IMG/VR virus record: IMGVR_UViG_3300020042_003020
Coordinates: 1 to 27,701 of that record
Length of the DNA: 27,701 nt
Reading direction: 5' to 3' (one strand)
From: a virus
Lineage: Duplodnaviria > Caudoviricetes
Part shown: positions 2,891 through 20,039 of the stretch, piece after piece
Layout of the letters: every line of letters starts with the position of its first letter
Numbering within the stretch: the stretch's first letter is position 1
The notes under the pieces: model-generated
What the model was told of the DNA's origin: nothing
Database searches by the model: none
What the model saw: the letters and a program-made list of their open reading frames with translations, nothing else
Program-made: the position numbers and the translations under genes

Positions 2891-3026
2891 TCGGCAGTGG
2901 ATTATTTTTAATCAGCTTGGTGGTGCCGAGTGGCTACGTACCATCATCACCAAGAAAGCCCCGATGCCCAAGAAGTACTATGACGCACTACTACAGGAGA
3001 AACCAAATGATTCAAAGAGCCGATGA
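2835..3026 (+). CDS. Small putative DNA-binding protein (63 aa, ribbon-helix-helix-like)
   Basis: ATG 2835, MPRAKPPEPLIGRQIRMSDRQW...LGGAEWLR. Beta-strand plus two helices pattern. The function is an inference. Confidence 0.6.
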   Translation: MPRAKPPEPLIGRQIRMSDRQWIIFNQLGGAEWLRTIITKKAPMPKKYYDALLQEKPNDSKSR

Positions 3027-4396: not shown

Positions 4397-6275
4397 CCTT
4401 GAGTGCTTCTACTCAACTGAGTATTCCCTGACCAAGATTCCTACCGAGGAGTATGTGCGGTCGCCTCAGTTTGAGATAATTGGCATTGCAATCAAGGTGG
4501 ACGACGGCCCGACAACTTGGTATCCCAAACCGCAAGTGGAACGGATACTAAAAGAGTTCGACTGGTCTGATGCAATGGTGGTTGCACAGAACACTGCGTT
4601 TGACGGTGCGGTACTTGACTGGCTGTATGGCGTAAAGCCACTGGCTTGGTTTGATACGCTTGGTATGTCACGGGCTTTGTATCCGCATGAAAAGGCACAC
4701 CGCCTCGAAGTGCAAGCACAACGCATGGGTATTGGAGTCAAGGGCGATGAGGTCAATCATGCCAAGGGCAAGCACTACGCTGACTTTTCGGTAGAGGAGA
4801 TGGCACGTTACGCTGAATACTGCGTCAACGACGTAGAGCTAACGTACAAGCTATTTAATGCGTACATGGCGATGGGTTTCCCTAAACAAGAACTGAAACT
4901 GATAGACATGACTCTACGCATGTTCATTGAGCCTGTGCTTGAGTTGGACAAGAAGCTATTGGTTGACCACTTGGAAGCCGTAAGGGACGCCAAAGAAACG
5001 CTAATGGAATCTGTGCGGGACTTTATGCTAAAAGACGCTGATCCCGAATACGTACACGCTATCTTTAGCGAGGGCATGGCAGGCATTAAGAAGCTACTCA
5101 TGTCTAACGACAAGTTTTCCAAAGTGTTAGAGAACTACGGCGTTGTACCGCCCACAAAGGTAAGCCTGCGCACTGGCAAAATAGCGTGGGCATTTGCCAA
5201 AACCGATGAAGAGTTTAAATCCTTAGAGGAGCATCCCGATGAACGAGTCCAAATGCTTGTCGCAGCCCGCCTTGGAAACAAGACGACAATTGAGGAGACT
5301 CGCACTGAGCGCTTTATTGGTATGTCTAGCCGAGGCAAGTTTCCTGTACCTCTACGTTACTACGGGGCACACTCTGGTCGTTGGTCTGGTCAAGACTCTG
5401 TAAACCTGCAGAACCTACCATCACGCGGTGATAACGCAGGCAAGATCAAGAAGGCTATCAAAGCGCCCAAGGGTTACGTTGTGATTGACTGCGACTCTGC
5501 ACAAATCGAAGCTAGAACTTTAGCTTGGCTTGCGGGTCAGCATGACTTGATAGAGGCGTTCGAGGATAAGAAGGATGTGTACCGCCTGATGGCTAGCCAG
5601 ATTTACCAGATACCGCCAGAGCATGTGACGACTGGCCCTGCCAGTCAGCGTCAGGTGGGTAAGACCGTGGTGCTTGGTGCAGGCTATGGCGTCGGACCAA
5701 ACAAGTTACAGATATTCTTAAAGGTACAAGCCGGTGTCGAGGTGACGCTTGACGAGGCAAAACGCATCATCCACGCATACCGGACAACGTACTACAAGAT
5801 ACCCGAGTTGTGGCACAAAGCCGACGAAGCGTTGATTGCGTTGCGTACAGGCAACGGCTTTCAAGTAGACGAGCAAGGGCTAATCCACGCCATACCCAAG
5901 AAAGGGTTAACCCTACCTAGTGGGCTACATATCCAGTACCCCGGCTTGGGTGAGGTGTTGGATGAGAAGACTGGCAAGACTCAGCTACGCTATTTCTCTA
6001 AGGGAATACCCGTGTATATCTATGGCGGGAAGGTAGTTGAGAACCTGTGTCAAGCCGTAGCAAGGCAGGTCGTTGCGGAGCAGATGCTCAAAATCGGCAA
6101 GAAGTATAAGGTGGTGTTGACAGTTCACGATGCCGTGGCTTGTATTGCACCAATTGAGGAAAAAGATGAAGCAAAACAATACGTTGAGGAGTGTATGTCA
6201 TGGCGTCCAAAGTGGGCACAAACTTTACCTCTAGCCTGCGAATCAGGCGTAGGGGCTTCCTATGGGGACTGTTGA
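4374..6275 (+). CDS. polA: Phage family A DNA polymerase with 3'-5' exonuclease (633 aa), Leu762 type
   Basis: ExoI TLDLE, ExoII QNTAFD, ExoIII YCVND. Motif A DSAQIEAR, motif B RQVGKTVVLGAGYG, motif C VHDA. No 5'-3' exonuclease domain. Confidence 0.95.
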   Translation: MPKIVTLDLECFYSTEYSLTKIPTEEYVRSPQFEIIGIAIKVDDGPTTWYPKPQVERILKEFDWSDAMVVAQNTAFDGAVLDWLYGVKPLAWFDTLGMSRALYPHEKAHRLEVQAQRMGIGVKGDEVNHAKGKHYADFSVEEMARYAEYCVNDVELTYKLFNAYMAMGFPKQELKLIDMTLRMFIEPVLELDKKLLVDHLEAVRDAKETLMESVRDFMLKDADPEYVHAIFSEGMAGIKKLLMSNDKFSKVLENYGVVPPTKVSLRTGKIAWAFAKTDEEFKSLEEHPDERVQMLVAARLGNKTTIEETRTERFIGMSSRGKFPVPLRYYGAHSGRWSGQDSVNLQNLPSRGDNAGKIKKAIKAPKGYVVIDCDSAQIEARTLAWLAGQHDLIEAFEDKKDVYRLMASQIYQIPPEHVTTGPASQRQVGKTVVLGAGYGVGPNKLQIFLKVQAGVEVTLDEAKRIIHAYRTTYYKIPELWHKADEALIALRTGNGFQVDEQGLIHAIPKKGLTLPSGLHIQYPGLGEVLDEKTGKTQLRYFSKGIPVYIYGGKVVENLCQAVARQVVAEQMLKIGKKYKVVLTVHDAVACIAPIEEKDEAKQYVEECMSWRPKWAQTLPLACESGVGASYGDC

Positions 6276-7270: not shown

Positions 7271-7361
7271 ACTCGGTGCCTGCAGTTGCTGAGTTGTTTC
7301 GTTGGATTTTCTCCTCCCCAGTAATGGGTTTGCCCAGTAGCAGTGCTACTGGGCTATTTTT
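7271..7361 (+). ncRNA. Candidate anti-Shine-Dalgarno small RNA (~91 nt)
   Basis: -10-like TAAGAT at 7259-7264. 5' hairpin 7271-7294, unpaired UUUUCUCCUCC 7307-7317, GUAA tetraloop mini-hairpin 7317-7328, intrinsic terminator 7332-7361. It occupies the largest intergenic gap in the window. Confidence 0.5.
7332..7361 (+). terminator. Rho-independent terminator
   Basis: Perfect 10-bp stem GCCCAGTAGC-agt-GCTACTGGGC followed by TATTTTT. Confidence 0.8.
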
Positions 7362-10535: not shown

Positions 10536-10570
10536 GGGGTAACAGGTAGCACTGTTGCCCCTATTTTTTT
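10536..10570 (+). terminator. Rho-independent terminator between the HTH and primase genes
   Basis: Stem GGGGTAACAG-gtagca-CTGTTGCCCC (one G.U pair) followed by TATTTTTTT. Confidence 0.8.
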
Positions 10571-10592
10571 CTCCTCAACCCAGTGAGGTTCT

Positions 10593-13439: not shown

Positions 13440-13674
13440 GCCCAAGGTTCCGCTACCTGACCATCTGCGAGTACTCTCCCTTCACGGGGTGGAGTATTTT
13501 ATGCAGTGGGAAAAGCTGTTGGTTGGCAGTTCGTTCTTTATACCAACTACCGCAACACCCATGCAGATACGAGCCGCACTGCTTCCCGTATCTAGGTTTT
13601 TTAGAATACGGTTTGAAGTACGCTCCCGCTGTGAGTACGGGAGGTACGGTGCTCGAGTGTGGCGAATCTATTAG
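13393..13674 (+). CDS. Small conserved phage protein (W..L.VGSSFFIP...G.RVWR type), possibly DNA-binding
   Basis: TTG start with GGAG at 13383-13386. Last + strand gene. Start position uncertain. Confidence 0.65.
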   Translation: MASTKRRLRKQKTALKPKVPLPDHLRVLSLHGVEYFMQWEKLLVGSSFFIPTTATPMQIRAALLPVSRFFRIRFEVRSRCEYGRYGARVWRIY

Positions 13675-16600
13675 CGTTGAACCTTGCGTAGTTCTGTCTT
13701 AGCTTCTCGCACCCACTGTACGTATTCCAACTCTGTCCGCTTAAGTTCTTTAAGGTCAGCTTCGCGGTCTTCTTTACTCATGTCGGCAGCGCCTTCGGGA
13801 CTATTTAAATACTTGCGATACGCACGAGTGCGTTCCAGTTGCTCAAGCGTAGAGTTAATCATACCTTCTAGCTCAAGCTCGGCCTCGTGTTCTACAACGT
13901 ATTTCTCTGCCCGATCAAGGTCAGTTTTTATCAACTCGTTTAGCGTAGTGTTGGCTTTGCCGACCTTCTCGCGCTCTTCGTAGAACTCAGTCATGCGTCG
14001 TGTGCCAACTGGGTCATACAAGTAGTTGCTGAACAGTGCGTACTTGTGCAGTGGGCGGTCGACTCGCGTTGGGTTGAGTAAGCTGTCCGTCACCATGGTA
14101 ACCATAGCAGCAGTTGAACCGAAGTAACCACGCAGTGCGTTATCAATCATGATTGGGGAAACTTCAACACCAATCTCATCACGGCTAAACACCGCAATAG
14201 CTTTTGCAAGCTCGGAGGTTTGGTCAGTCTTACGCATGCTTGGGTCCATTGCCCTGTGGTGATAGCCCTCTAAGTCTTTGCCAGTCAAGAATGACTTGTT
14301 AGCCCATGCTTCAATCACCGGTTTGATAGCTTGCGGTATTGGAACGGCGCGGCCCAAGTATTGCTCAAACATGTAGTTTAGCGTTGTGCGCACGGCTTCA
14401 AATGCCGTCTGCTCTTCAGGCGTACCCTGACGGCGCATGTACTCTACGATACGCTCGGGGATGACTTTAAAGATAGCGCCTAGTTCGCCCGGAACTCCGA
14501 TCTTGTATCCGCCACCAAGAATCCAGTTGCTGTCCCGTGTACGCAAGTCCATCTCGTTGTAGTCTTCGTCATCATCGCCCTTACCCAACGCATACAGGGA
14601 ACTCAGCATCGTGACGGTAATTGCACGGCTATAGAACAGTTGTCGAGCTTTTGCGCGATCAACGGACGAGCTTGAGTCTTTGCCAGATGCAGCGCGGTAC
14701 AACACATCCATACCTTGAATGTAAGCATTAAAGAACGGAATAACCGTAACCATGTCAGTCACAAACTGGTTTGCGCCACGGCGACGAAAGTTAATAAACT
14801 CACGGGCGCGGGTCTGCGCCAACAATTCATCTTTGCTTTCATTCAAGGTTTGGTCGTAGATAGCTTTACGAACCGCCAAGTCAGATGCGCGGGTAATACC
14901 ATCTAATCTGTGAATTAGCGTTTCAAACATGCCACGCTTTTTGTAGCCTAAGTCTTTTAGCAGAGATGTTGCAGGCTTACCGGCTTCAAAGTCATACTCA
15001 CCGGTCAAACCAAGCCGCCCAAAGTCTTTAACTATCGGGTGCTGGATGCCACGCAGTTCTGCCAATGCCAGCTTGGGAAAGTTAGTCAAAGACATCCAAA
15101 CTAACGCGCCGGGATTTCTTACACCAGACGTCATGATGGCACGTTGTACGTCATCCATCACCTGCTTCAACGCAAATGGTGGCAGTACAGTAACTGTTTT
15201 ACGTAGGATGTTAGAGAACGCACCCATTGCCCGAATCCAACCCGCTTTAGGTGGGTTCAAATCTTTAAACGCCATGACGTCGTACTTGCTTGGCAACTCC
15301 CAGTACTGCATTTCACCGTTTACGTAAGCCCCCACACTGTTTGCAGTTGGCGATGCTCCAGTACGCAATTTTTTAGCTTGCCCAATATCTTCCAAACTGC
15401 GCAAAGTTATTAGAGTAGCGTCGGCTTTAAGCGTTTGCCCAACCATCCAACCAAGCGTGTTTAGGTAGTTATCGAACACATTGCCCACTGGACGTTCAAA
15501 CGAACCAACCAACTCAGGTAGTTTGCCAAGCTGTGCCAAACCTTTGCCACTAATCTTTTTAGCCTTATTAAAATTGGCAGCTACGGAATCAATTGTTTCA
15601 CGATCAAACGGCACATAGCCTACGACGTCACGCCACAACTTACCTTCTTCGGCAGACAACCTACCTACCGCAACCAAGTTGTCAACCATCGCTTTACGGG
15701 CTTCGTCCATGAGCTTGCTCATTTCCTTCAAGTCCGGGTCGGCGTTGTAAGCTCGCACCAACTGGTCAATCTCGTTGTCTTTTAAGTGAAGTGCAAAGTT
15801 TGTCATGCCCGTATTATTAGACCGGCGCATCTCATCTAAACGCACACCTTCTAATATGCGACTGGCAATTTGTGTAGCGCGTTCGCGGCTGTACCCGTTC
15901 TTCTCCGCATACTGGTCAATCAACGCATAGACTTCTGCAGGGGGGCGGACGCCTTCACCCATGCCGGACTTCCACAGACCGGTTGTTTTATCTTTGTACA
16001 ACGTACCAGTCTGGAAGTATTCCAACAGCATTTTGGTGTAGTCTTGCGCCTGACGGTATAGACCCATAGGATTAAGTTCACCCAGTGAGTTACGCACTGC
16101 GCCATCAAACTTCTCCCTCAGACGTTTTTCAATAGTGGCAGCAATGTCCGTTACTTGCGTACGGAACTTAGTCACGTAGCCAATGTCAGGATTGGATTGG
16201 ACACCTACAAGCAGTTTCTTTAACCCGGATTTGTCGTCGCGGTTTAGCGGCCCCATAGAGTCAATTAGCTGTTCGTCGCTAAACGATATGGAGAACTGTT
16301 GTTTTATCTCCTGCGAATTTTCCGGCAAGCTAATGTTTGGCGCTGTCTTAAAGTTTGCTGGGCCTGCTTTGTTTAAGAAGTCTGCAACAGATTTAGCGGG
16401 TGGATATTTACGGCTGGTAACAATAGCTACCAAGTCGCGCATCATCTGAGCAACTCTAGAGAAAAACTTATCTGCAATACTCAATGGCTTTTCGTTAGTC
16501 GTAGCCCAACGTGATACGTTGTCTGCAAACCATTCGCCAAATGAAATCCAATAAGACTCAAACTCTTCCATTGTGGCTGCAGCGGCATCCGCGTCGCCAT

Positions 16601-19600
16601 TTAATTCGGCTCGTCTAATATTGCTTTCGGCGTCTTCGCGATTACGCAACATGTACATAAAATCACGTTTTGTTGCTACCTTAGCTTTTGCGCGCCATGC
16701 TAAATATTCGTTAGTAATGGCTTTTTGTTCTGCGGTACTGGCGTTGTCGTACAAATGGACTTGTGCTATGTGGCCAAGTTCGTGAGTTAAAATCTCTAAT
16801 TGTTTGCTCTCGCTCATACCGGGTCGCAAATAAACGGCGTACGTCTTGCCGTCCCCACCAAGATGTAATGCAGAGCCATTTACGTTATTTTCTCGTATCT
16901 CAACTATTCGAGCAAACTGAGTACCATACAGCTTGTGCTTGTCCACATAACTACTGTCAGTTGGATCGGGTTTGCTAAATATAAATATTCGTAGGTTACC
17001 TAAACCCAATAATTGCAATATGTTTTCCGTGTACCCTACTATTGCAGGATTAACAGCATCGGCACCAACTATATTTTTTCCTGAAAAGAATGGCCCGTCA
17101 CGATTGCTTACAGCTAAGTCAAGTTCTTTCATATGCAACTTGGTTGCAGCGTCAACCAACCGAGTAAGGTCTTTCCCCGCTAACCAACTAGGTTGCATGT
17201 TTGGCAGTGATATAGGATACGTCGCTACTTGCCCTTTACGGTTAACCACGTAGAATCGGACGCGGTTGTCTTTGTTTAATGCGCGATACATTGCAAAATC
17301 AGCGTCTTCATAAACAATTGGTGTTTGCGGCGATCCGTAAATTTCTGACCATGTAGGCTCAATGACAATACTATTAGTCCACTGTCTGGCTATTGCATCT
17401 TGCTTAGCTTCTTCAGCTTTACGTTCTTCTTCAGCTTTACGTTCTTCTTCAGCTTTACGTTCTTCTTCAGCTTTACGTTCTTTTTCTTCAGCTTTCTTGG
17501 CGTCGGCAGCTTTCTTGGCTTCTTCAGCTTTCTTGGCTTCTTCAGCTTTCTTGGCTTCCTCGGCTTTACGCGTTTCTTCAGCTTTAGTAATTTTATCGGC
17601 AGCTTTCTTGGCTTCTGCAGCAGCTTTTTCGGCTTCTTCAGCGGCTTTAACGGCTCTAGCCGCAGCTTGACCGGCCTTAGTGTCTTCAGTTTCGGCTTGT
17701 AATTTTTCGCCAATTGTGGATGGGCCACTAAAGTCAAACGGAGATTTAGTTTTTGCGGGTTTAGGCGCTTCTTCCTCAACCGTTGTTCCGGCGTCGCCTG
17801 TATCTTTTACCAATGCAGCAAACGGATTTACAACTTTAGGAGCGCCAGTAGTAGCCGGTGCTTGAGTCTCTTTGGTAGTGGTAGTTTTAGTAGTCCGGCC
17901 AGTAGTCTTCTTTGGTCCCGTAGTAGTCGTGGTAGTGGCAGTAGTACCAGTATCAGCAGGAGTAGTAGTAGGCGCATTGGTTTCTTTGGGTAGTCGCTCG
18001 GCTCTGTCAAGTTCAGCCCACTCCGCTTTCTTTTGGTCAATCTGCGTACTCAACGAATCCCATTTTTTACGGGCTGGAGATTTCACAGCAGGGATACGCC
18101 CAGCTTTAGTAAGCAAGGCTTGTTGTTCTGCGATTAGCGCACGTATCTCTTCAAAGACTACGTTAGTAGTGCGTTCAGTGGGAGTCGTTACTGCAGTGGG
18201 CTGCGCTCCTTGAGTTGTAGTTCCCGTGCCAGCAGGTTGTCCAGCAGGTGCCAGTCCGAGTCCGTTAGGTGTTTCAGATGTTCCGGTGGTGGCGGGAACT
18301 CCGGTTCCGGGTTGTACCACGTCGGTTCCGGTAGGCTTACCAGATACTCCCACGCCTGACTCACCTCCTCCGAGGTCAAGCTCTCCTTGAGGCTTATCCG
18401 TTTGGGTAATGGTCGGCTCATTTGGTTTCTCCTCAAAAGCTGCAGGTTGTGGCGCTATTAGCGCTTTCAATACCCCAGCACGCGCACCAGTACCGCTAAT
18501 AAGTTTGGGGTCGCGCTGAACCAGCGCTTTAATTTCTTCAACGGTTTTGCCAAGCACATTGGTAGTTATCCATTGCTTGGATGTTTTTAGAGGCAGTCCT
18601 ATGGCATCAATGTCTGCTTGGGTAATAGCCGCAGTGGTTGGACCTGCCAGACCGGGAAAGCGTTGCGTACCGGCTTCGTCAGCAGCTTTTTTCTCTGCTT
18701 CTTCCGTAAGTCGTTGTTCTTTAATGATTTTTTCGGCTTGACGTCTGCCAATATCAGCTTCGTCGTATGACGCCCGTTGCTCGGCTAGTTCTTTGATACG
18801 CGCCTTGACCTCAGGGGTTTGGGGCTGCATCTTAAGCGTTTCTTGTTCTTTTACAAGGTCAGCGTATTCACGTTGGAAATCTAAACCAAGAGTGGCTTGT
18901 TCGCCTTGCTGCACTGCAGCAGTTTTAGGTTCCGGTTCTTCCTTTGGCGGCGCAACTTTCTTACCCATCTCTTGGGGCGTGAACAGCGTACCCTGCGTAC
19001 CTACACGGGCAGTTTCAGGTAGCGTGGCACCCGGTACAACTTCTTCTTTTGGCTCGCGTGGTCGTGCAGCTTCTTCAGCGCGACGTTGTTGGTCTAACTG
19101 ACCACGGGCTTGGCCTCGTTCTACAGCGCCTGCTGCGCCGCCCAAGGGCGTACCAATCAAAGCGGCTTGGTATGCAGACTCACCGTATTCTTTATAGGCT
19201 TCTGGAGACGTTAACTCTAACCCTGCTTGGTAGCGCTCAAGAACTTGTTGGGCAACCTCTACGGGCATCTCAGCCGTACCACGGATAGCTCCACGCCCCG
19301 CAGATGCAGCCAGCGAACGCTCGGCGGCTTTGACTAACTCAGTTTGCGCGGCAGCAGTTTTGAGAGCAACATCATCCGTAAGCCCAAGTATCCCGCCAAC
19401 TACGCGTTTGCCCAGCGTGAATGCAGTACCAACACCTTCTAGTGCGGCTTGACCTGCGGCGGATATATAGGCTTTTTTGCGGTCAATGTCTACATTCTTA
19501 CCTGCCTCTATCTGTTCTTCGGCTTGGCGTTCAACGTTGGAACCCATAAATTGTGGAAGCAGAACCGCGCCAGTTCCTAAAGCCGCACCAACTGCACGAC

Positions 19601-20039
19601 CGGGAACACCAAATGCAGAACCGGCAGCAGAACCTGCCTTAGCGCCAGCATACATGGATGCTAGGTTTGCGCCTTGACCGGCCAATGCACGGGGGACTTG
19701 CGACACAACTTCGCCTGCTGCAGACAGCAAGCCTTTGTCTTTGTATGCTTTTTTAACGGCTTCTAAGCTAACGCCTTCGCCAGCTTCTCTACCAATGTCT
19801 TCGCTACGGGCAACACCAGCCCTAGCTGCCCCCTCAGGGTCAAAGATACTTCCGATACCCGTACGCGCTGAAGATACTAACTGTTTACCACCACGAACCA
19901 GTTCGCTACCAATTGTGGATTGTTTTGGGGTGGATGATTGAGCGACTAACCGTTTGACTGTTGCTTGAATTACGCTTGGGTCTGTGCCGTCGGGGAATTC
20001 AAGAATTCGGCCATCGGCCAGTTGCGCTTCAATCGCCAT
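13671..20039 (-). CDS. Large polyvalent virion/ejection protein (2122 aa) with zincin metallopeptidase and LPD38-like C-terminus
   Basis: GAGGTG RBS. N-terminal DGRILEFPDGT, Gly/Ala-rich hydrophobic region, THELGH...EWFA, and C-terminal PFFNAYIQG...RDSNWI...IKPVIEAWANKSFLTG. Confidence 0.82.
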   Translation of the reverse strand: MAIEAQLADGRILEFPDGTDPSVIQATVKRLVAQSSTPKQSTIGSELVRGGKQLVSSARTGIGSIFDPEGAARAGVARSEDIGREAGEGVSLEAVKKAYKDKGLLSAAGEVVSQVPRALAGQGANLASMYAGAKAGSAAGSAFGVPGRAVGAALGTGAVLLPQFMGSNVERQAEEQIEAGKNVDIDRKKAYISAAGQAALEGVGTAFTLGKRVVGGILGLTDDVALKTAAAQTELVKAAERSLAASAGRGAIRGTAEMPVEVAQQVLERYQAGLELTSPEAYKEYGESAYQAALIGTPLGGAAGAVERGQARGQLDQQRRAEEAARPREPKEEVVPGATLPETARVGTQGTLFTPQEMGKKVAPPKEEPEPKTAAVQQGEQATLGLDFQREYADLVKEQETLKMQPQTPEVKARIKELAEQRASYDEADIGRRQAEKIIKEQRLTEEAEKKAADEAGTQRFPGLAGPTTAAITQADIDAIGLPLKTSKQWITTNVLGKTVEEIKALVQRDPKLISGTGARAGVLKALIAPQPAAFEEKPNEPTITQTDKPQGELDLGGGESGVGVSGKPTGTDVVQPGTGVPATTGTSETPNGLGLAPAGQPAGTGTTTQGAQPTAVTTPTERTTNVVFEEIRALIAEQQALLTKAGRIPAVKSPARKKWDSLSTQIDQKKAEWAELDRAERLPKETNAPTTTPADTGTTATTTTTTGPKKTTGRTTKTTTTKETQAPATTGAPKVVNPFAALVKDTGDAGTTVEEEAPKPAKTKSPFDFSGPSTIGEKLQAETEDTKAGQAAARAVKAAEEAEKAAAEAKKAADKITKAEETRKAEEAKKAEEAKKAEEAKKAADAKKAEEKERKAEEERKAEEERKAEEERKAEEAKQDAIARQWTNSIVIEPTWSEIYGSPQTPIVYEDADFAMYRALNKDNRVRFYVVNRKGQVATYPISLPNMQPSWLAGKDLTRLVDAATKLHMKELDLAVSNRDGPFFSGKNIVGADAVNPAIVGYTENILQLLGLGNLRIFIFSKPDPTDSSYVDKHKLYGTQFARIVEIRENNVNGSALHLGGDGKTYAVYLRPGMSESKQLEILTHELGHIAQVHLYDNASTAEQKAITNEYLAWRAKAKVATKRDFMYMLRNREDAESNIRRAELNGDADAAAATMEEFESYWISFGEWFADNVSRWATTNEKPLSIADKFFSRVAQMMRDLVAIVTSRKYPPAKSVADFLNKAGPANFKTAPNISLPENSQEIKQQFSISFSDEQLIDSMGPLNRDDKSGLKKLLVGVQSNPDIGYVTKFRTQVTDIAATIEKRLREKFDGAVRNSLGELNPMGLYRQAQDYTKMLLEYFQTGTLYKDKTTGLWKSGMGEGVRPPAEVYALIDQYAEKNGYSRERATQIASRILEGVRLDEMRRSNNTGMTNFALHLKDNEIDQLVRAYNADPDLKEMSKLMDEARKAMVDNLVAVGRLSAEEGKLWRDVVGYVPFDRETIDSVAANFNKAKKISGKGLAQLGKLPELVGSFERPVGNVFDNYLNTLGWMVGQTLKADATLITLRSLEDIGQAKKLRTGASPTANSVGAYVNGEMQYWELPSKYDVMAFKDLNPPKAGWIRAMGAFSNILRKTVTVLPPFALKQVMDDVQRAIMTSGVRNPGALVWMSLTNFPKLALAELRGIQHPIVKDFGRLGLTGEYDFEAGKPATSLLKDLGYKKRGMFETLIHRLDGITRASDLAVRKAIYDQTLNESKDELLAQTRAREFINFRRRGANQFVTDMVTVIPFFNAYIQGMDVLYRAASGKDSSSSVDRAKARQLFYSRAITVTMLSSLYALGKGDDDEDYNEMDLRTRDSNWILGGGYKIGVPGELGAIFKVIPERIVEYMRRQGTPEEQTAFEAVRTTLNYMFEQYLGRAVPIPQAIKPVIEAWANKSFLTGKDLEGYHHRAMDPSMRKTDQTSELAKAIAVFSRDEIGVEVSPIMIDNALRGYFGSTAAMVTMVTDSLLNPTRVDRPLHKYALFSNYLYDPVGTRRMTEFYEEREKVGKANTTLNELIKTDLDRAEKYVVEHEAELELEGMINSTLEQLERTRAYRKYLNSPEGAADMSKEDREADLKELKRTELEYVQWVREAKTELRKVQR
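17405..17645 (-). repeat. 18-bp coding tandem repeats (AEEAKK x~4, AEEERK x~4)
   Basis: Near-identical units TTCTTCAGCTTTACGTTC and TTCTTCAGCTTTCTTGGC on the + strand. Confidence 0.9.
18188..18421 (-). CDS. Overprinted 77-aa protein nested in an alternative frame of the polyvalent protein gene
   Basis: GAGGAG-N7-ATG. The 16-mer AGGAGAAACCAAATGA is identical to the DUF3310 start region. Protein-like amphipathic sequence (LTSEEVSQAWEYL...PPPEHLKHLTDSDWHLLDNLLAREL). Confidence 0.65.
   Translation of the reverse strand: MSRPLPKRISLKESLTSEEVSQAWEYLVSLPEPTWYNPEPEFPPPPEHLKHLTDSDWHLLDNLLARELQLKERSPLQ

Follow-up and report, generated by a model that had tools for sequence, protein, structure and literature searches.

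The genes B, E and K of phage phiX174 are reportedly embedded, out of frame, in other phage genes. Embedding of this kind is established for phages (PMC9144972, PMC8227390), and in the Rz/Rz1 pair the inner gene lies wholly inside the outer one, on the same strand and with its own start site (PMC9144972, PMC6139136). Here we describe a gene of the same arrangement in what we call the window, i.e., the whole analysed stretch of 27,701 nucleotides (nt) from IMG/VR record IMGVR_UViG_3300020042_003020 (Duplodnaviria; Caudoviricetes), a 27.7-kb phage fragment that is about 43% complete. The gene, located at 18188..18421 on the minus strand, encodes 77 amino acids (aa) followed by TAA; it occupies the +1 frame of a giant gene (13671..20039, minus strand) for a 2122-aa polyvalent protein with an LPD38 domain, and overlies residues about 540-618 of that protein. 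Unlike Rz1 and the phiX174 genes, the nested product has neither a lipoprotein signal nor a membrane helix and no sequence or fold link to their products, its host is a polyvalent gene of 2,000 codons, and the host frame is near neutral over the overlap.

LPD38 polyvalent and ejection proteins form the second described system with which the locus can be compared (PMC5512222; phi24B gp47, 10.64898/2026.04.10.717836). The giant gene shares with them the LPD38 domain (14076..14570, minus strand; host residues 1824-1988; Pfam PF18857, E 6.5e-27), a zincin-like motif, a position at the end of the late operon, and swapped central domains; by analogy with phi24B gp47, its product is likely to be a virion ejection protein. 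No nested gene is described in the available text of either source: in PMC5512222 the word "nested" refers to a hairpin fold, and in the phi24B text it does not occur. Our literature search, with most subscription journals outside its coverage, found no description of a gene nested in, or overprinted on, a polyvalent, DarB-like, ejection or virion-polymerase gene.

The frame and the boundaries of the nested gene can be observed directly in the DNA. An earlier reading made from the letters of the window (the sequence-only reading) had proposed a same-strand, alternative-frame open reading frame (ORF) of 77 aa at this place, and the ORF exists, running from an ATG at 18421 to a stop at 18188; the outer end that had been given, 18436, is instead that of an upstream TTG start that would yield 82 aa. 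The Shine-Dalgarno (SD) sequence GAGGAG is found, as had been noted, 7 nt ahead of the ATG (18429..18434, minus strand), where the host frame reads Glu-Glu, and is likely to serve as the nested gene's own ribosome-binding site, driving its translation from the late mRNA. Across the nested ORF, the host frame is indeed a linker rich in Gly, Thr and Pro.

Selection on the two frames was measured by a simple count of single changes in disjoint pairs of loci, rather than by a likelihood model. Over the overlap, in 22 such pairs, the ratio of nonsynonymous to synonymous change (dN/dS) was 0.14 (Fisher p 1e-39) when the nested frame was counted and 0.65 (p 0.056) when the host frame was, and a second, more divergent set of 17 pairs gave 0.15 and 0.85, respectively. 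In the control regions the relation is the reverse: the host dN/dS is 0.07 in the adjacent upstream host domain and 0.03 in the C-terminal domain, with +1-frame values of 0.71 and 0.99. Within the overlap, changes that are silent in the nested frame exceed replacement changes about sevenfold per site, the third codon position of the host is the least variable, and the nested frame is the more conserved one in 556 of 561 pairs (34 distinct loci; mean identity 0.61 vs. 0.43 for the host frame). Stops in the +1 frame are depleted in the three bins over the gene (0, 0 and 0.8 per 100 codons, vs. 1.7-4.9 in the other bins shown). The pattern in which relatives would conserve the main frame alone and have stops in the nested one is thus not what is found; the giant protein drifts in sequence at the overlap, while dozens of related phages preserve the small protein. 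Judging by these sequence comparisons, the nested ORF is almost certainly a protein gene.

A single genome would be insufficient proof of this, because an SD-led alternative-frame ORF of at least 60 codons, other than this one, is also present in 19 of 56 related giant genes; the proof is supplied by conservation. Loci were selected by the C-terminal domain of the giant protein only, which avoids the bias of a search with the nested protein (18 loci, all of them nested). The first host-selected set contains a homolog in the +1 frame in 44 of 51 loci; a second scan found 80 viral and 2 genome loci, and among the 36 examined on contigs new to the first set 28 were positive. In total, 72 of 87 host-selected loci carry the +1 homolog, and the remaining 15 are all truncated on the 5' side before reaching the site. 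Six of these truncated loci were tested and lack the upstream landmark domain as well, and the other nine have at most 440 codons ahead of the C-terminal match, whereas the gene, where present, lies at least about 660 codons ahead of it. The nesting in relatives' giant genes and the frame-specific dN/dS together bear out the earlier proposal of a real overprinted gene, selected in its own frame and locked inside the giant gene.

The signals of the gene are preserved along with its frame. Start is at an ATG or GTG behind the SD, 22-26 codons upstream of the first conserved Trp, and the position of the stop is kept; SD plus ATG/GTG are retained in 72 of 73 loci with a match, the remaining locus being cut at the start. 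In all 56 distinct loci the host codon at the nested start is CGT, AAT, AGT or GAT (N-[AG]-T) followed by G, and such codons have a share of 11-33% among their synonyms. In a distant AT-rich clade, with about 25% identity in the C-terminal part of the host protein, a 56-aa version stands in the same place; it is nested in the +1 frame in each of the 11 metagenome loci found with it. We also performed a profile search of 1.84 billion representative proteins, which returned 43 matches, 40 of them family members of 45-95 aa; P0045 and P0047, which are unrelated repeat proteins, and P0041, in which host-frame and nested-frame sequences are fused within the ORF, were removed before tails were counted. 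Gene callers report proteins of the family mostly on short contigs. The nested gene is present once per genome in the four complete relatives searched, and none of the loci examined showed it as a free-standing copy. Six full-length giant genes (L139-L144), of a clade related to a Bacteroidetes-bin contig, gave no sign of it and have no upstream domain either, and the family likewise went undetected in five cultured LPD38 phages. The range of the nested gene, narrower than that of its host gene, fits overprinting on an older linker, as far as can be judged from sequences; alternatively, a once free gene may have been inserted. Only one contig from a genome collection has the nested gene (L128, 24 kb, binned as "uncultured Aquiluna"); it is possibly a misbinned phage and a weak hint as to the host. 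One run of a lake metatranscriptome gave 6% of words and a 166-nt contig on 18241-18403 (depth 3.5, 5 differences), which cannot show transcription or its level.

Members of the family are about 56-90 aa long and acidic, with a mean charge of -4.6. The AlphaFold2 model of the window's protein (mean predicted local distance difference test score, pLDDT, 79.8) consists of two helices, residues 17-29 and 54-73, separated by a Pro-rich loop with a short turn. This agrees with the helix, Pro-linker and helix that had been read from the sequence; of the three Trp residues singled out there, only W24 and W57 are conserved, and the invariant positions in 77 sequences are L27, L49, L52, W57 and L64. 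None of 92 members has a hydropathy above the transmembrane threshold of 1.6, the highest 19-residue value being 0.93, and there is no lipobox, nor any Cys, in the window's nested protein.

Database searches have given no name to this protein. Pfam and PHROGs contain no match to the 77-aa sequence, and a scan of 44 family members against PHROGs produced a single match, for one member, at E 0.0011. In ESM Atlas the nested protein had no usable match, and a relative as the query brought up only unnamed or low-share clusters (0.92-0.94, low recognition). Foldseek found nothing at E <0.001 in BFVD and PDB. A VIA fold search listed many three-helix homeodomain/Myb rows with a best Z of 4.4 (root-mean-square deviation 3.3-5.0, 55-64 aligned residues) and none at Z 5, and the net charge of the nested protein is negative. 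Among GenBank phages there was no match for the window protein or for two distant members, and a third gave only partial noise; a viral scan with P0043 also found no match. The family is, by sequence evidence, a real and unnamed overprinted protein family without family or fold match. It is unnamed because standard annotation drops genes nested in long ORFs.

The most distinctive trait of the family is its C-terminus, Ser-Pro-Leu-Gln in the window copy (18191..18202, minus strand) and S-x-[LVI]-[HQ]-COOH in the family consensus, which lies outside the last helix in the model. The conservation of this tail is a direct observation: an [LVI][HQ] terminus is present in 49 of 52 distinct locus proteins and in 39 of 40 representatives, compared with a background of 0.9% among 2637 other +1 fragments. 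Since the tail was part of the profile used to find the representatives, their count could favour it; that of the host-selected loci could not, because every locus that covers the site was detected. The penultimate residue is aliphatic (L, V or I) in 49 of 52; at the last position, 85 of 87 proteins have His or Gln, and a low-resolution tree implies 11 or more changes there. Of the 52 locus proteins, 27 end in His and 24, including the window copy, in Gln; among the 40 representatives, 31 end in His. Changes at the middle base of the last codon leave the host protein unaltered, so this constraint comes from the nested protein.

Phage T4 reportedly encodes a protease antagonist, PinA. Phage protease antagonists have also been described in PaoP5 (Dap2/Dap1; PMC13083879) and lambda (CIII; PMC1838920), and we propose that the nested protein may share a logic in which a small phage protein shields an assembly protein from a host AAA+ protease; PaoP5 Dap2 binds Lon and thereby rescues a packaging enzyme (PMC13083879). 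Lon itself reads C-terminal x-L/I-L/I/V-H degrons, such as those of SulA, Smg and Y2853 (PMC11986505), and LarA works on Lon via a helix plus a short His-ended tail (PMC10665427). A helix followed by a short free aliphatic-His tail is what about half to three quarters of the nested family shares with these proteins. We therefore favour, as a possibility that is still doubtful, a reading in which the soluble two-helix protein acts as a protease decoy through its free Leu-His/Gln tail and keeps the giant protein intact until it is packaged. In this reading, ribosomes would start on the nested gene at a site of its own within the late mRNA; its soluble product would act in the producing cell, in a non-virion role; the free tail would engage a host protease, presumably of the Lon type, as a decoy; and the newly made giant protein, whose long low-complexity linkers would make it a natural Lon target, would thereby be protected before packaging. 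Five small ORFs nested in the giant genes of cultured phages (discussed below) have a terminal His, too.

Several observations weigh against this proposal. We infer, rather than observe, both translation of the nested gene and binding of its product to Lon. The tail of the window copy ends in Gln in place of the terminal His of the Lon degron, and would be a weaker Lon signal; for Yersinia Lon, replacement of His by Gln raises the half-life of a reporter from 152 to 402 min, and Val and Pro outrank Gln (PMC11986505, Table S1). Terminal Pro, which would leave the host protein unchanged, is found in none of 87 proteins. At position -3 most members have Pro instead of L or I, and, unlike the known degrons and LarA, the family has Gln for His in the 24 of 52 proteins mentioned above; it has no homology to them. 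The only match to a genome contig, in an actinobacterial bin that is possibly misassigned, does not identify the host or, hence, its Lon. The PaoP5 and lambda genes, unlike the nested gene, are free-standing; there is no similarity to their products in Pfam, PHROG or fold searches, and the activity of the nested protein is assigned by likeness. A degron could also merely shorten the lifetime of a protein that has another job. Finally, the giant genes of L139-L144 and of phage Pondi have a peptidase without a detectable nested gene.

Inhibition of a zinc peptidase by a tail that enters its active-site cleft is a known mode of control. The tail might accordingly act on the giant protein's own metallopeptidase, as a broad-range cap that occupies the cleft in the manner of a substrate and blocks self-cleavage until packaging or ejection, and exactly one HExxH/HExxxH motif is found downstream of the nested gene in all 54 hosts examined, with such motifs also present in the cultured giant genes that have nested ORFs; these peptidases have been proposed to be autoproteolytic (PMC5512222). 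We consider this unlikely. The peptidase motifs of the 54 hosts fall into seven freely swapping clusters, the similarities of nested protein and peptidase do not co-vary (Spearman 0.08), 29 of 73 pairs with nested identity of at least 85% differ in peptidase cluster, identical nested proteins stand beside peptidases with no detectable similarity or with 19% similarity (L081/L084, L104/L116), and motif-bearing giant genes without a nested homolog exist. The lack of co-variation makes a cognate inhibitor unlikely, and a dedicated inhibitor of the neighbouring metallopeptidase, one form of the partner that the sequence-only reading had suggested, is disfavoured. The nested protein could instead be a folding or packaging chaperone, made from the same mRNA as the giant protein, bound to a conserved part of it and later removed through its tail. 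Its fixed position right after a conserved host-frame domain, its two amphipathic helices with conserved Leu and Trp, and the correlation of nested similarity with that of the 300 residues at the C-terminal end of the host protein (rho 0.66, partial 0.29) would all suit such a role, which we nevertheless regard as improbable: an unlinked primase gene is tracked equally well (rho 0.66, partial 0.35), which shows that the signal is one of shared ancestry, and the partial correlation is about zero with the adjacent domain and with the N-terminus. A complex prediction for the nested protein and the upstream host domain returned a score of 0.00 ("no answer"), which is evidence neither way.

Different families of nested ORFs occupy the linkers of different giant genes, as would be expected of opportunistic overprinting, and the product could be an independent late factor, such as an inhibitor of a host enzyme or an exclusion or lysis-timing protein, that simply uses the coding room offered by the linker. 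Most overprinted genes are accessory (PMC8227390), overlapping exclusion genes are known in phage Fc02 (PMC9936078), and the acidic charge would suit a mimic of protein or DNA. We give this view a rather low probability, as the gene is found once per genome and never free-standing in the samples above. The absence of a membrane helix from 92 members makes a role as holin, spanin or membrane exclusion protein unlikely; with no membrane-grade hydrophobic window and a place in the late operon, superinfection exclusion, which had also been suggested, finds no support. Two further explanations would do without a separate gene, and both are very improbable. An SD-like site can stimulate frameshifting, and a programmed frameshift could fuse the +1 frame to the first 540 residues of the giant protein, as the database protein P0041, which joins host-frame and nested-frame sequence, might suggest. 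The junction of P0041, however, lies within the ORF and looks like an assembly indel, no shared slippery site is found upstream, the ATG/GTG is kept in 56 of 56 distinct loci despite the rare host codons that this imposes, and a search of proteins of 159-2000 aa found no fused form, which is weak evidence. Likewise, the frame could be open as a side effect of an RNA signal or of a linker rich in Ala, Pro, Thr and Gly, without coding for a protein, given that SD-led alternative ORFs of at least 60 codons occur elsewhere in 19 of 56 host genes; this is contradicted by the frame-specific dN/dS, the least-variable third position of the host, the depletion of +1 stops, and the fact that gene callers do report the protein on short contigs.

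Nested +1 ORFs are not confined to this family. In four of the five cultured LPD38 phages examined, the first half of the giant gene contains an SD-led +1 ORF that is not annotated; in Pondi the gene has no +1 ORF of at least 40 codons. The 131-aa ORF of Vibrio phage D274 (L131:7151-7543) has relatives in eight GenBank records and belongs to a second conserved +1 family, of 120-131 aa, found in the DarB-like genes of cultured Vibrio, Pseudomonas, Serratia, Ruegeria and Klebsiella phages (in L156, L157, L158, L159 and L160 from 8001 onward); the member in Pseudomonas phage Skulduggery, which grows on P. fluorescens SBW25, has 129 aa. All six members examined (D274, 1.232.O, Skulduggery, Parlo, 45A6 and ZX1) are in the +1 frame, with a Met start and an SD-like site, and the nested frame outscores the host frame in 15 of 15 pairs, or in 13 of 15 by identities. 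Small His-ended +1 ORFs are present in Parlo (L157:5952-6164), ZX1 (L159:6336-6545), phiARM81mr (L132:5021-5212) and the Erwinia phages Pastis and S6 (L161, ending at 6195, and L162, ending at 6162); those of the first three encode 64-71 aa, and that of ZX1 weakly matches (E 0.01-0.6) the +1 ORFs inside the virion RNA polymerase genes of N4-like Erwinia phages. All five of these aligned ORFs end in His, three of them having been hand-picked partly for that ending, and the Erwinia starts have a weak SD. Comparison of the small His-ended family with the window family by HHalign gave a probability of 2.5% (score 15.4, vs. a maximum of 14.4 in 40 shuffles), and with phiARM81mr alone 0.1%. Matches of the ZX1 ORF in Vibrio phage 51E28 lie inside an ordinary annotated gene and were rejected. 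Further SD-led +1 ORFs of 50-69 aa are seen in Planktothrix (L130:2122-2328), Achromobacter (L133:8705-8908) and Ruegeria (L158, at host residues 1018 and 1408) phages. No nested ORF is annotated in the GenBank records examined for these phages.

It may be, though we put it forward with considerable doubt, that the giant polyvalent and virion-RNA-polymerase genes of podoviruses routinely hide +1 linker genes, and that the ones with an x-L-H/Q ending constitute a class of built-in Lon decoys that has gone unrecognised and would guard the giant cargo protein until packaging. The question bears on how ejection proteins of 2,000-4,000 residues, partly disordered, survive the cytoplasm and reach the capsids. 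As cultured phages, e.g., Pseudomonas phage Skulduggery, have nested +1 ORFs, it is testable at once; meanwhile, phenotypes credited to giant genes on the basis of knockout or CRISPR interference may be confounded by the hidden gene.

Two other claims of the sequence-only reading concern the translation start. The 16-mer AGGAGAAACCAAATGA occurs only at 2995 (plus strand) and 18433 (minus strand), the former, as stated, in the start region of the DUF3310 gene (2995..3010, plus strand), but the link to DUF3310 is not conserved: relative G001 retains the DUF3310 16-mer, yet its nested ribosome-binding site differs, and other genes of the window have similar sites. The match is a coincidence that reflects a shared style of ribosome-binding site. 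Pairing of the nested site with an anti-SD small RNA, for which no coordinates had been given, was examined for the site at 10568-10578 only, and is not supported: in 47 loci the best match averages 8.3 nt, vs. 8.1 nt for random 23-mers, 4 of the 47 reach 11 nt, and the 11-nt antisense site itself is present only in the window and its closest relative, L020. The replication module has anti-SD-like pyrimidine runs in two of its intergenic regions, at 7308-7315 and 10568-10578 (plus strand); a similar site in relative L023 is the SD of a small reverse-strand ORF.

In the window, a plus-strand replication module converges on a minus-strand late module, and the order of genes in relative G001 places the giant gene at the end of the late operon. 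Genes for terminase, portal, capsid, tail fibre and endolysin are found in a complete relative of 66 kb, in an operon that ends with the giant gene. G001 also has a GroES-like gene beside the portal gene (L135:3155-3676) and a 2OG-Fe(II) oxygenase among the tail genes (L137:11661-12236); no spanin or credible lipobox was found near its endolysin to mark the type of host cell. A scan for an internal promoter gave a single weak site resembling sigma-70 promoters (18751), where chance alone would give 1.3.

The giant gene itself is a mosaic. Directly upstream of the nested start lies a small helical host-frame domain (18426..18644, minus strand; residues 466-538), present in 54 of 56 hosts and conserved in the host frame, for which AlphaFold2 predicts five short helices (pLDDT 80) and fold searches give a best Z of 3.3, with weak SAM/PNT-like rows at Z about 3, below significance; a divergent version is present in L113, L114, L153 and L154. 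The middle of the gene (about 16100-18190, minus strand) is a swappable cassette between nearly identical flanks, which in the window includes the HExxH motif (16770..16784, minus strand; residues 1086-1090) of a zincin-like metallopeptidase domain (residues about 1000-1250), of the class described in PMC5512222, and across relatives holds the seven peptidase clusters, some relatives having an ART-PolyVal or HATPase domain in addition. Of seven full-length hosts without an apparent peptidase, six carry the motif in its HExxxH form; the seventh, L067, represents only the 5' part of a gene split by a frameshift in a downstream tandem repeat (about 5760-6035), probably an assembly error, and its nested gene is intact upstream. 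A second SD-led +1 ORF of the giant gene, of 61 aa (15920-16105, minus strand), has a comparable counterpart only in L026 among close relatives and is probably incidental.

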